Part shown: in pieces, positions 1,473 through 2,140 of the stretch
Numbering within the stretch: position 1 is the stretch's first letter
Layout: every line of letters begins with the position of its first letter
Origin: a virus
Taxonomy: Duplodnaviria > Heunggongvirae > Uroviricota > Caudoviricetes
Strand: one strand, 5' to 3'
IMG/VR virus record: IMGVR_UViG_2531839664_000015
Location: 1 to 16,592 of that record
DNA: 16,592 nt
Translations under genes and position numbers: made by a program
Notes under the pieces: generated by a model
Database searches by the model: none
The model's input: the letters and a program-made list of their open reading frames with translations, nothing else
Told to the model about the DNA's origin: nothing

Positions 1473-1497
1473 AAAAAAACCCGCAAAAAGCGGGCTC
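1473..1497 (-). terminator. intrinsic terminator downstream of the Q-slot gene (tR'-like position)
   Basis: On the minus strand, hairpin CCCGC-UUUUU-GCGGG is followed by a run of seven U (plus-strand AAAAAAACCCGCAAAAAGCGGG). Confidence 0.6.
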
Positions 1498-1573
1498 TTT
1501 CAAATGTCCATGTCTGCTATTCGCCTCGCGGTACAGCTTTGCGAAGCTTACCGGAATTGAAGCAGTTTTTACG

Positions 1574-2140
1574 TCAAAAAGCAATAACTTTTTTCTCTAT
1601 ACCAAAAGCCATAACCATTGGTTTGTACAAAATAAATTCTGCCACCTTTAGCCAATGCTCAATGCGTCTTTCACAGGTTCTTAAACTCCATTCCGGATGT
1701 GCATCATTCAGCAATTCAGCCATTTTGCGCTTAGTCATCCCCCGCCCCACATAACGCTGACTCAGAACATTGAGCAGCCCGGGATAACCTGCCAGTACTT
1801 CACCAATAACCCTGTCGATTATTAACGCCTCTGAATCGGTACAATGTGCCAGCCAGCTTTTTTGATTGCCGTTGATCATATCCCGCAAAAAAGCCTCAAG
1901 TTCAGGTTTGTCCAGACCCGCTTTTTTCATCCTCCGGAGCGCCTCGTTAATTGCCGTTTTTGTCAGCTTTTTAGAGGTCAGTAATTGGTTGAACATATTT
2001 CCCGTCTTACCGTCGCCAATATACGACCAACGCCCCCACATACGCAGTTTCCCCTGGATCCAGACACTTTCCAGCGTTTTCAGGCGTAAATGCTCACCGC
2101 TTTTGCCTGTAATTTCCGGGTATATCATATTTATGCTCAC
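1574..2140 (-). CDS. phage protein in the Q (late antiterminator) slot; family unverified
   Basis: 188-aa ORF immediately after rusA with a GTGA stop/start overlap at 2137-2140 (alternative ATG at 2128), followed about 75 bp later by an intrinsic terminator. That position matches Q in lambdoid phages. The sequence does not match lambda Q as I recall it; it may be a DUF1133-like protein. Confidence 0.45.
   Translation of the reverse strand: MSINMIYPEITGKSGEHLRLKTLESVWIQGKLRMWGRWSYIGDGKTGNMFNQLLTSKKLTKTAINEALRRMKKAGLDKPELEAFLRDMINGNQKSWLAHCTDSEALIIDRVIGEVLAGYPGLLNVLSQRYVGRGMTKRKMAELLNDAHPEWSLRTCERRIEHWLKVAEFILYKPMVMAFGIEKKVIAF

Follow-up and report, generated by a model that had tools for sequence, protein, structure and literature searches.

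Does the gene that directly follows rusA in this prophage encode a late-gene antiterminator and, if so, to which family does it belong? The question arose from one stretch of viral DNA (16,592 nt, here called the window), in which the slot of Q is occupied by a protein of doubtful kinship. The original prediction saw in this protein a possible antiterminator of an unrecognised, perhaps distinct family, and pointed to a palindrome between the gene and a terminator, at the place where a pause or Q-utilisation site would be expected. Our analysis suggests a plainer answer: the protein is in all likelihood a Q-type late-gene antiterminator of an EHEC lambdoid prophage, belonging to the DUF1133 branch of the Q21 family (Q21 being the Q protein of phage 21) and presumably using a Q21-like mechanism. 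The features on which this reading is built are collected in Table 1.

Table 1. Coordinates of the Q-like gene, its cis-acting sites and its neighbours within the window.
Feature	Position	Strand	Remarks
rusA, Holliday-junction resolvase	2137..2496	(-)	last nin-region gene; directly upstream of the Q-like gene
DUF1133 gene	1574..2128	(-)	184 aa, ATG 2128 to TGA 1576-1574; predicted Q21-type late-gene antiterminator
Predicted -35 TTGCTT	1579..1584	(-)	within the last codons of the DUF1133 gene
Spacer TTTGACGTAAAAACTGC	1562..1578	(-)	candidate Q-binding element, between predicted -35 and -10
Predicted -10 TTCAAT (alternatively TCAATT)	1556..1561	(-)	predicted start site about A1549 ± 2 nt
TAAGCT, -10-like hexamer	1545..1550	(-)	predicted sigma-dependent pause element; identical to the phage 21 SDPE hexamer
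Leader hairpin	1523..1547	(-)	GCUUCGC / 11-nt loop / GCGAGGC; within a highly conserved leader segment
Intrinsic terminator, tR' equivalent	1473..1497	(-)	stem CCCGC/GCGGG (1494-1490 / 1484-1480), loop U5, tract U7 (1479-1473)
First ORF past the terminator, PHROG 331	1152..1472	(-)	106 aa; E 2.3e-47, residues 1-105
AraC-family regulator resembling YdeO/GadX	303..1016	(-)	cargo gene; PF00165 and PF12833
tRNA-Ile(CAU)	199-274		after the AraC-family gene; ARAGORN and Rfam
tRNA-Arg(UCU)	22-98		after the AraC-family gene; ARAGORN and Rfam

Position and start of the gene

The gene order runs from rusA over the DUF1133 gene and the terminator to cargo genes, tRNAs, holin, lysozyme and terminase, and in identical genomes the holin, lysozyme and head genes are found further downstream. 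Between the nin region with rusA and the holin-lysozyme-terminase genes, the DUF1133 gene is the sole Q candidate. The identity of rusA is given by Pfam (PF05866, E 5e-16), by PHROG 34 and by the PGAP label RusA family protein. The Q slot directly after rusA, as originally described, was confirmed. In the case of the GTGA coupling described along with it, the overlap is indeed present: the 188-aa ORF 1574-2140 (-) opens with a GTG that shares its first base with the rusA stop. This start is probably unused, however, because all DUF1133 homologues measure 176-192 aa and begin with MIYP, MINP or MIHP, PGAP places the start at ATG 2128 (184 aa, WP_000640035.1), and a Shine-Dalgarno-like GTGAG lies 7 nt upstream of this ATG. 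From the sequence, the true start is most likely ATG 2128, four codons away from GTG 2140, rather than the GTG overlapping the rusA stop. The family evolves under purifying selection (dN/dS about 0.1). The plus-strand ORFs 1455-1754, 1844-1984 and 1866-2210 gave no family matches above threshold.

On the far side of the terminator, the PHROG 331 ORF would be the first gene on an antiterminated transcript; PGAP gives it 65 aa only, starting at an internal ATG. The AraC-like regulator scores 106 bits on the NCBIfam YdeO model, which is under the cut-off of that model.

Family assignment

Profile searches against DUF1133 and the known Q families, which had been proposed together with the original prediction, returned PF06576 and PF06530 and thus point to antiterminator relatives. 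In the case of PF06576 (DUF1133), the match covers model positions 1-176 of 176 with residues 5-180 of the 188-aa translation (E 3.7e-105, 349.3 bits against a gathering score of 23.1), and the identical protein is labelled DUF1133 family protein by PGAP. In the case of PF06530, the Q21/Q933W antiterminator family, the protein also passes, with 33.1 bits against a gathering score of 26. Its PHROG, 753, carries the description 'anti-termination protein Q-like'. With a full-length Pfam membership, a second family above its gathering score and a Q-like PHROG, the notion of an unrecognised family had to be abandoned. DUF1133 had in fact already been flagged as Q-like by PHROGs and by a 2021 paper, while the literature that was searched contained no experiment or activity assay on any DUF1133 protein. 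The remark that the protein does not resemble lambda Q held up: neither PF03589 (lambda Q) nor PF06323 (Q82) appeared in a Pfam scan of the protein at E up to 0.01. The PF06323 model itself works, because AntQ-like proteins score 283.6 bits on it.

The relationship to Q21 was also seen from other directions. When the test was reversed, the HK629 / P22-type Q reached 33.9 bits on the DUF1133 model and Q21 itself 22.0 bits, the gathering score being 23.1. A phmmer search of the PDB sequence set with the single sequence found Q21 chains (E 5e-4), and with the DUF1133 profile Q21 was the sole match below E 0.01 (E 6.1e-9). Alignment to Q21 by hhalign gave 97.7% probability (E 1.8e-12) over 135 aligned columns, which span the N-terminal helix with the pattern W..G.L..WG.W.Y.G as well as the C-terminal HTH; within the DUF1133 family, conservation is highest over the N-terminal 55 residues. 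P22-like gp23/Q genes of the PF06530 branch (P22 gp23, Sf6 gp59, HK629 Q) were matched by tblastn with 25% identity over 91% of the length. Among 1.8 billion cluster representatives, phmmer matched 76 clusters, mostly fragments, and did not reach Q21; as far as sequence clusters can tell, this shows a small family. Judging by these alignments, DUF1133 forms a small branch, enterobacterial and sister to the phage 21 / P22 gp23 Q family, and the protein in the window is related to phage 21 Q, from which it has diverged considerably.

Predicted structure

As a whole, the AlphaFold model is only moderately confident (mean pLDDT 61.8). The confident region is the C-terminal HTH half, with residues 98-175 mostly at 70-97 per 10-residue block, and residues 1-54 lie below 50, so that the N-terminal half is unreliable. 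Within these limits of the model, Foldseek against the PDB returned Q21 chains as all of the best 12 matches (E about 3e-3, target-normalised TM 0.50-0.60), and the next match after them has E above 1. Single-sequence AlphaFold gave a pLDDT of 43 and an unusable model.

A conserved cassette with predicted promoter, pause site and terminator

Downstream of the coding sequence lies a compact cassette: -35 TTGCTT, 17 nt, -10 TTCAAT, 5 nt, TAAGCT, leader hairpin and terminator. The predicted promoter is weak, its hexamers agreeing with the consensus at 3/6 and 4/6 positions and position -11 being T, C or G, not A, depending on the register. With only 7 of 12 consensus positions matched, it escaped a simple promoter scanner, which reported nothing resembling the sigma-70 consensus in 1498-1600. 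In the spacer, the upstream half-site, TTGACGT at 1577-1571, shares bases with the stop codon and is variable between relatives; the downstream half AAACTGC is conserved.

Related genome loci share this layout, with TAnGCT 5 nt past the -10, and TTG recurs 17 nt upstream of TTnAAT even where it falls inside coding sequence. Across all fetched loci, 117 cassettes match the anchored pattern TTGnnn-17-T[TA]nAAT-5-TAnGCT, and in all of these pattern-matched cassettes TTGnnn sits 17 nt upstream of the -10. The -10 itself reads TTCAAT (93), TTGAAT (18), TTAAAT (4) or TTTAAT (2), where only the free positions are informative because the pattern demanded T[TA]nAAT, and the third position of TAnGCT in the same 117 is A in 42, C in 34, T in 33 and G in 8. 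TAnGCT was also present in 19/19 leaders taken from loci that had been found by protein similarity. Of 119 IMG/VR cassettes found by the leader motif, 112 are preceded on their own strand by a DUF1133 gene, which in 92 cases lies within 60 nt. The 66-nt non-coding cis region is 83-88% identical; at 4-fold degenerate sites of the adjacent gene the identity is 39-56%.

By its letters, TAAGCT at 1550-1545 is the annotated phage 21 SDPE. It would occupy about -1 to +5, and the phage 21 SDPE +2 to +7, slightly further from the start site. A paQ-like CII site (TTGYN6TTGY, as in phage 21) was not found within the gene (1574-2128); over the whole window this pattern has 4 matches, the number expected by chance.

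The palindrome AGCTT-TGCG-AAGCT sits at 1535-1548, one base off the position first given, and a 5-bp palindrome with a 4-nt loop is a chance-level expectation. As a conserved RNA hairpin it was rejected, since it is lost in related loci (L002, L005, L006 and L012) in which a 7-bp hairpin is kept. What is conserved at this site is the hexamer TAnGCT and the 7-bp hairpin pairing 1547-1541 with 1529-1523. The expectation of a pause or Q-utilisation site was therefore right in place and wrong in reason: the palindrome overlaps TAAGCT, the hexamer that serves phage 21 as its sigma-dependent pause element, and its reading as a structural hairpin fails. When the leader is folded, the 7-bp hairpin gives the minimum free energy; most variants are likewise predicted to form a hairpin from the GCT of TAnGCT onwards, with differing sequences.

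In the case of the terminator, folding of the 121 nt at 1460-1580 gave a minimum-free-energy structure (-37.6 kcal/mol, z -3.5) that contains the hairpin, and an upstream A-tract is able to lengthen the stem. A strict perfect-stem scan placed a terminator at the same relative position in 20/24 scanned related loci, the distance in related loci being 46-90 nt past the -10. The stems differ yet all pair (CCCGC, AACCCGCC, AAACCGC, GCCACC, AAACCACC and GCCGC). The intrinsic terminator predicted after the gene is thus supported by its fold and by its conserved position in most related loci, though the consensus promoter/terminator scanner did not list it.

Covariation of the recognition helix with the spacer half-site

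In the alignment with Q21, the motif TCxxR of the protein falls on the recognition helix, the second one of the HT[loop]H. Among 73 distinct pairs from relatives, this motif covaries with the half-site in the spacer with zero cross-over. TCEKR is paired with TTACG[CT], TCRRR with TGA[GAT]C (the Q21 counterpart being TCRRE with QBE TGAGCA), TCERR, the motif of the protein studied here, with TTGACGT, TCRNR with TT[AG][CG]CC, and TCE[SNT]R with TTGCGC. The downstream half AAACTGC shows no covariation with the helix motif, and in the window it is not a repeat of TTGACGT. The covariation is confounded by tight physical linkage, as helix and half-site lie about 60-100 bp apart.

Proposed mechanism and alternative readings

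With these elements, and by homology to Q21, the following sequence of events can be proposed. Early transcription through the nin region would produce the DUF1133 protein. At the constitutive sigma-70 promoter that overlaps the gene end, RNA polymerase would initiate near 1549 and would pause about 15-18 nt downstream, because sigma region 2 is expected to re-bind the -10-like TAAGCT. When the protein is absent, transcription would stop at the 1497-1473 terminator and leave an RNA of about 75 nt. When it is present, it would bind the -35/-10 spacer, the helix with TCERR reading the upstream half-site TTGACGT, and load onto the paused polymerase, where its N-terminal half would narrow the RNA-exit channel so that terminator hairpins could not form. 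Read-through would then cover the PHROG-331 ORF, the AraC-like regulator and the tRNAs, followed by the lysis and head genes. The guess of a late antitermination switch is strengthened by the homology to Q21 and by a cis cassette whose elements each have a counterpart in that of phage 21, which was defined by experiment.

The same observations could be arranged differently. An HTH or sigma-region-4-like factor might simply activate or repress a promoter located where its own gene ends, leaving the elongating polymerase unmodified; the terminator would then just close the early (nin) operon. In favour of this, ECF sigma region 4 is what Q21 itself resembles, the model is confident in its HTH half, and the covarying half-site, being placed between -35 and -10, would also suit a classical repressor. 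The homology, however, extends over all of Q21 and takes in the N-terminal helix ahead of the RNA-exit-channel torus, and the N-terminal residues are those best conserved in the family. A terminator 46-90 nt past the promoter in most scanned loci and, at the start site, a -10-like hexamer with the letters of a proven pause element fit antitermination, and such an arrangement of promoter, pause and terminator would be wasteful for simple activation; we regard mere promoter regulation as very improbable. Slightly less remote, and still quite unlikely, is a reading in which TAnGCT is the true late -10 (an extended -10 in many relatives), TTCAAT and the -35 are irrelevant, no promoter-proximal pause occurs there and the protein is loaded by another route. 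At the two critical -10 positions, 2 and 6, TAnGCT has the required A and T, a combination that TTCAAT lacks, TGn stands directly upstream of it in ten Enterobacter-type relatives, and the upstream promoter was rejected by the consensus scanner. Against this, phage 21 annotates the identical hexamer as a pause element downstream of a mapped start site, HK629 has a near-consensus TTGACA-18-CATAAT upstream of TATGCT, the TTG at 17 nt before TTnAAT recurs in related loci even within coding sequence, and the window has neither a -35 at 17 nt from TAAGCT nor a TGn.

Finally, gene and cassette could be a non-functional relic, intact by descent and controlling nothing or only supplying a short leader RNA. 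Identical genomes have frameshifted portal, protease and DUF6645 genes, and IS elements replace the integrase end; because this prophage copy looks defective in them, it may never run a lytic programme. The ORF is nevertheless unbroken, many O121 and O157 genomes carry it with 100% identity, the family is under the purifying selection described above, and the window preserves promoter, TAAGCT, hairpin and terminator undamaged, with cargo (the AraC-like regulator and the tRNAs) downstream. We give the relic the lowest probability of these readings, and it bears on present use, not on the nature of the element. The Q21-like antiterminator is kept as the preferred reading: a Q21-family protein with a conserved late promoter, pause signal and terminator amounts to an ordinary prophage late-gene switch and to no new family.

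A bolder version of this reading, which we hold to be possible but doubtful, makes DUF1133 a mechanistically distinct offshoot of Q21, with an RNA-exit-channel 'nozzle' segment twice as long, a plain HTH without the minor-groove loop and recognition of a single half-site that the TCxxR helix determines, and lets the constitutive pR'-tR' leader RNA of ~75 nt with its conserved 5' hairpin act in lysogens as a trans-acting sRNA in the manner of StxS/IsrK. Terminated leaders are known to accumulate as short RNAs in the cases of lambda 6S, StxS and IsrK (PMC7547250, PMC4825925). The isrK model (RF01394) gives 19.8 bits for window 1474-1547 (-) (E 0.015-0.04), below its 50-bit gathering score. True isrK (67-81 bits) follows the DUF1133 gene in two related loci (L003 and L007) as part of a module, isrK-C4-antirepressor, inserted between the gene and the conserved cassette. 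The anti-sRNAs AgvB/AsxR were considered as a pR' leader and rejected, as they lie at a different site, beyond moron genes.

Distribution and implications

A 1.5-kb probe (DUF1133 gene, rusA and flanks) matches 3,748/5,426 complete E. coli genomes, at a median of 2 places per genome. DUF1133-type Q genes occur in several lambdoid prophages per EHEC O157/O121 genome and in many other Enterobacteriaceae too. On the preferred reading they would gate late-promoter cargo, which here is an AraC-type YdeO/GadX-like regulator and rare-codon tRNAs. Placing DUF1133 in the Q21 clade could better annotate a 'domain of unknown function' and supplies base-level coordinates for the cis sites, and the putative helix-to-half-site code (TCEKR, TCRRR, TCERR, TCRNR, TCE[SNT]R) is directly testable by swaps. 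The general picture of late-gene control is unchanged by this finding.

Comparison with known Q systems

The closest known system is phage 21 Q (PF06530; PDB 6P18/6P19/6P1A and 6JNX), which is homologous over nearly the whole length and accounts for all Foldseek matches below E = 1. Its gene has the same position, closing the nin region, with the late promoter and the lysis genes directly after it. The phage 21 cassette also has its elements in the same order: after the -35 come a spacer with the protein site, the -10 and the start site, then the pause hexamer and the terminator, and beyond these tRNAs and lysis genes. In the curated phage 21 record, the SDPE TAAGCTG, of which TAAGCT is identical in the window, stands just past the start site, and the QBE (ATTGAGCA and AATGAGCA) lies in the same -35/-10 spacer. 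Q21 and the TCRRR subgroup of DUF1133 both combine a TC-R-R helix motif with TGAGC half-sites.

There are also clear differences. Q21 and the DUF1133 protein share about 25% identity and have separate Pfam entries; the torus segment (Q21 residues about 29-54) is about 28 residues longer in the DUF1133 protein, and 12 residues of the minor-groove loop of the Q21 HT[loop]H are missing from it. The Q-binding element of Q21 consists of two 8-bp direct repeats, whereas the window has TTGACGT instead of TGAGCA and no visible second, QBEd-like repeat. The pause hexamer lies 5 nt from the -10 in the window and 7 nt in phage 21, and the leader, with its own 5' hairpin, is about 75 nt long against about 50 nt. 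Both phage 21 and HK629 have TTGACA at the relative position of TTGCTT.

In the case of P22 gp23, Sf6 gp59 and HK629 Q, the proteins are 85% identical to Q21 and share its long loop in the HT[loop]H. The score of HK629 Q on the DUF1133 model is above the gathering threshold, and as predicted here its promoter overlaps the 3' end of the gene, with TATGCT after the -10 and a terminator about 40 nt on; its promoter is near consensus (TTGACA-18-CATAAT-7-TATGCT), while that of the window is weak. Gifsy-1 AntQ was considered as an experimental precedent and rejected, as the published antQ primer encodes MNTQYLQ and the protein belongs to PF06323, the Q82 family; a scan of the genome-collection loci with the antQ reverse primer gave no match. 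Lambda Q (PF03589) and Q82 / Gifsy-1 AntQ (PF06323) are functional analogues: there too, the gene is immediately followed by a late promoter that is constitutive, then by a sigma-dependent pause and a terminator.

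Family assignment of the protein

The gene located 3' of rusA had originally been predicted to encode a Q-slot protein of unrecognised, possibly distinct, family, to be checked by profile searches with DUF1133 and the known Q families. These searches matched PF06576 (DUF1133) across the full model (E 3.7e-105) and passed the gathering score of PF06530 (Phage_antitermQ, 33.1 bits vs 26), and the top PHROG was 753, 'anti-termination protein Q-like'. Both Pfam matches are present in all listed database homologues, some of which are labelled 'antiterminator', 'late gene regulator' or 'Antitermination protein Q' by their sources. 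The Pfam scan of the protein gave no match to lambda Q (PF03589), in agreement with the dissimilarity noticed before, nor to Q82 (PF06323).

The relation to Q21, the Q antiterminator of phage 21, emerged from several directions. With the single protein as query against all PDB sequences, Q21 was the only match below E 0.01 (E 5e-4), and a DUF1133 profile of 17 sequences reached it at E 6.1e-9 (runner-up 0.043). Profile-profile comparison with Q21 and HK629 Q, a member of the PF06530 branch, gave 97.7% probability (E 1.8e-12) over 135 columns, from residue 14 to 178 in DUF1133 and from 6 to 153 in Q21. In the reverse search on the DUF1133 model, HK629/P22-type Q scored 33.9 bits, passing the gathering score of 23.1, and Q21 22.0 bits, just below it; tblastn returned P22-like gp23/Q genes at ~25% identity over 91% of the length. 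The AlphaFold model (58 sequences) was moderately confident (mean pLDDT 61.8), with residues 98-175 mostly at 70-97 by 10-residue block and residues 1-54 poor; the best 12 Foldseek matches of this model in the PDB were all Q21 chains, and no others fell below E = 1. DUF1133 thus branches within the Q21 family: the family is already known, demonstrably as a Q21-family branch, and not new.

The family is small (searching all of 1.8 billion cluster representatives gave 76 clusters, mostly fragments), with full-length named relatives found chiefly in Enterobacteriaceae. A dN/dS of ~0.1 indicates purifying selection; conservation is highest in the N-terminal 55 residues and, among close relatives, lowest in residues 141-176. 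DUF1133 genes of 84% and 83% identity occur, respectively, in a contig binned as 'Candidatus Nanosynbacter' (JARKOR010000130.1) and in PP818812.1, recorded as Actinobacillus phage vB_Apl-pPE4; both look like mis-binned or mis-assigned enterobacterial prophage DNA.

Regarding the start codon, the 188-aa frame from GTG and its GTGA overlap with the rusA stop are present as proposed, but translation likely begins elsewhere. All homologues have 176-192 aa and begin with MIYP, MINP or MIHP, and for the identical protein WP_000640035.1 PGAP places the start at ATG 2128, with a GTGAG motif 7 nt upstream. Therefore, the product is likely of 184 aa, starting 8 nt past the rusA stop and without overlap.

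Prophage setting and downstream genes

The window belongs to a lambdoid prophage found in enterohaemorrhagic E. coli. Over positions 1100-2600 it matches O121:H19 genomes at 100% and O157:H7 genomes at 99.9% identity. In the identical genomes, the Cro/CI region, replication genes, nin-type genes (hok/sok, BOF protein, DUF968) and rusA lie on the 5' side, followed by the DUF1133 gene, a small ORF, an AraC-like regulator, tRNA-Ile and tRNA-Arg and, past the window end, by TerB, DUF3927, DUF6645, holin, lysozyme, terminase and head genes. The relevant genes are on the minus strand, and the annotation of the prophage contains no second Q candidate. This gene order places the DUF1133 gene in the Q slot, as had been proposed. 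Elsewhere, a sok antisense RNA (4568-4742, minus strand; 113.5 bits) adjoins a Hok/Gef gene, and a DicF RNA (11976-12027, plus strand; 75 bits) lies directly upstream of dicB, both standard cargo of Qin/Rac-like prophages.

Features of the locus (window coordinates; promoter and pause elements are predictions)
Feature	Position	Strand	Remarks
DUF1133 ORF	1574-2140	-	188 aa from GTG; GTG overlaps rusA stop as GTGA
Predicted -35	1584-1579	-	TTGCTT; common layout
Spacer	1578-1562	-	TTTGACGTAAAAACTGC; between -35 and -10
Predicted -10	1561-1556	-	TTCAAT, then TCCGG
Predicted pause hexamer	1550-1545	-	TAAGCT; leader follows
Terminator	1497-1473	-	CCCGC-UUUUU-GCGGG + seven U
106-aa ORF	1152-1472	-	ATG (1472-1470) abuts terminator U-tract
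65-aa PGAP version	1152-1349	-	internal ATG
AraC-family regulator	303-1016	-	YdeO/GadX-like
CAT-anticodon tRNA	199-274	-	ARAGORN: tRNA-Met; PGAP: tRNA-Ile
tRNA-Arg(UCU)	22-98	-

No Shine-Dalgarno sequence is visible before the 106-aa ORF, of which PHROG 331 covers residues 1-105; in some relatives its first codon is ATA, yet the following CTGAAAAACGGCAC is conserved. The AraC-family regulator (NCBIfam 106 and 87 bits, below cut-offs) occupies a cargo position just past the late terminator, and its expression would depend on antitermination; it probably resembles the prophage-encoded Psr regulators of O157. The presumably lysidine-modified tRNA-Ile and the tRNA-Arg follow the terminator just as the tRNAs do in phage 21 and, presumably, in Stx phages.

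A conserved cassette behind the gene

Sequences 3' of the stop codon were compared at 27 reference-genome loci (52-85% protein identity). Nearly all showed one layout: TTGnnn, 17 nt, T[TA]nAAT, 5 nt, TAnGCT, a leader and an intrinsic terminator 46-90 nt past the -10. The proposed terminator was confirmed in the window, where it lies within the minimum-free-energy structure; terminator sequences vary between loci and pairing is kept in all. TAnGCT was found in 19 of 19 leaders from loci identified by protein similarity. An anchored pattern (TTGnnn-17-T[TA]nAAT-5-TAnGCT) retrieved 117 cassettes from all fetched loci, and in these any of the four bases occurs at the third hexamer position (42 A, 34 C, 33 T, 8 G). 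Over 66 non-coding bases from the -35 into the leader, the window is 83-88% identical to three relatives (L002, L005, L006), vs 39-56% at four-fold degenerate sites of the adjacent gene, so that the element is constrained well beyond neutral expectation.

In the 192-aa relatives (L012-L026), the last ~12 codons (tail RF.LQS.....) contain the -35 TTGCAA, read as Leu-Gln, and the whole candidate Q-binding spacer; in one of them (L017) an earlier stop leaves this DNA non-coding, still conserved, which suggests constraint at the DNA level. A simple terminator scanner reported the 1473-1497 hairpin on neither strand, even though, with 5 G-C pairs, a loop of 5 and seven T, it appears to satisfy the scanner's own criteria; negatives from that scan therefore call for caution.

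Scanning IMG/VR with the leader core GCTTCGCANAGCTGTAYCGCGAGG gave at least 119 loci. Among the matches listed, a DUF1133 gene lies upstream on the same strand in 112 of 119, within 60 nt in 92, and in 5 of the 7 loci lacking one the upstream sequence is shorter than 1 kb. In the non-adjacent cases an inserted module separates gene and cassette, most often isrK, C4 antisense RNA and an antirepressor gene. Such insertions were seen in L003 (3575-3776), L007 (3588-3768 and 290-476, two copies inside 3.3 kb), L101 and L149, and the Rfam 'c4-a1b1 target' model overlaps isrK. We presume that this module resembles immI (c4-icd-ant) of phage P1; if so, the Salmonella IsrK locus would be a relative of P1 immI.

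Covariation of helix and half-site

The -35/-10 spacer holds a candidate Q-binding site; its 3' half (AAACTGC) is conserved and its 5' half variable. This 5' half-site covaries with the protein motif TCxxR, with zero cross-over in 73 distinct protein-spacer pairs: TCEKR goes with TTACG[CT], TCRRR with TGA[GAT]C, TCERR (the window) with TTGACGT, TCRNR or TCKNR with TT[AG][CG]CC, and TCE[SNT]R with TTGCGC. hhalign places TCxxR opposite Q21 T125-C126-R127-R128, where the second helix of the HT[loop]H begins; in Q21 this HT[loop]H reads the major groove (bioRxiv 10.1101/651190). The covariation is consistent with direct readout of the half-site and is not proof, because the helix codons lie only ~60-100 bp from the site, so shared descent could give the same pattern. 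Proteins of two types share the TCRRR/TGAGC pairing: the Enterobacter type of 192 aa, whose spacer is coding sequence, and the E. coli type of 178-180 aa.

Leader RNA and proposed switch

Transcription from the predicted start near 1549 to the terminator would give an RNA of ~75 nt. In its predicted fold, 1547-1541 pair with 1529-1523 to form a 7-bp hairpin with an 11-nt loop, and an A-rich unpaired stretch separates this hairpin from the terminator. Most leader variants, including the unrelated-looking Enterobacter type (GCUCGG...CUGAGC), are predicted to form a hairpin that begins with the GCT of TAnGCT. The palindrome AGCTT-TGCG-AAGCT noted earlier is indeed present, at 1535-1548, but its 5 bp are insignificant alone and it is not kept as a hairpin in relatives. 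Against Rfam, the leader matched isrK only below threshold (19.8 bits vs 50). Short pR'-tR' RNAs act as sRNAs in other prophages, namely StxS (PMC7547250) and IsrK (PMC4825925).

A Q21-type switch is the best-supported reading. A constitutive, weak-looking sigma-70 promoter would overlap the last codons of the DUF1133 gene, and sigma, on re-binding TAAGCT, would make the polymerase pause early. In the absence of the protein, transcription would stop at the terminator; once the protein has bound the spacer and been loaded onto the paused complex, polymerase would read on over the cargo genes as far as the lysis and head genes. The main uncertainty is whether TAnGCT, rather than TTCAAT, is the true -10: TAnGCT has the canonical A at position 2, which TTCAAT lacks, and in some relatives TGn directly precedes it. 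Homology, gene position and cis architecture were observed directly and agree with the earlier guess of late-operon antitermination; promoter activity, pausing, DNA binding and antitermination are inferred.

Comparison with Q21 and HK629

Compared with Q21, DUF1133 proteins are ~28 residues longer between the N-terminal helix (W..G.L..WG.W.Y.G) and the C[TN]D motif; the counterpart segment of Q21 (roughly residues 29-54) forms the torus entering the RNA-exit channel (bioRxiv 10.1101/651190). They also lack 12 residues of the Q21 B1-B2 loop (Q21 residues 105-121), a minor-groove contact in Q21. The cassettes have the element order annotated in the phage 21 record (OL657228, curated from experiments): -35 TTGACA, a Q-binding element (QBE) ATTGAGCA + AATGAGCA in the spacer, -10, start site, sigma-dependent pause element TAAGCTG, terminator, tRNAs and holin. 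The TAAGCT of the window is identical to this pause element, and Q21, with TCRRE and the QBE TGAGCA, shows the same pairing as DUF1133 TCRRR with TGAGC. HK629 has TTGACA-18-CATAAT-7-TATGCT, then a terminator. Altogether, the element is an uncharacterised new member of the known Q21-type kind, and the value of the finding lies in a base-level cis map and a testable helix-to-half-site code.
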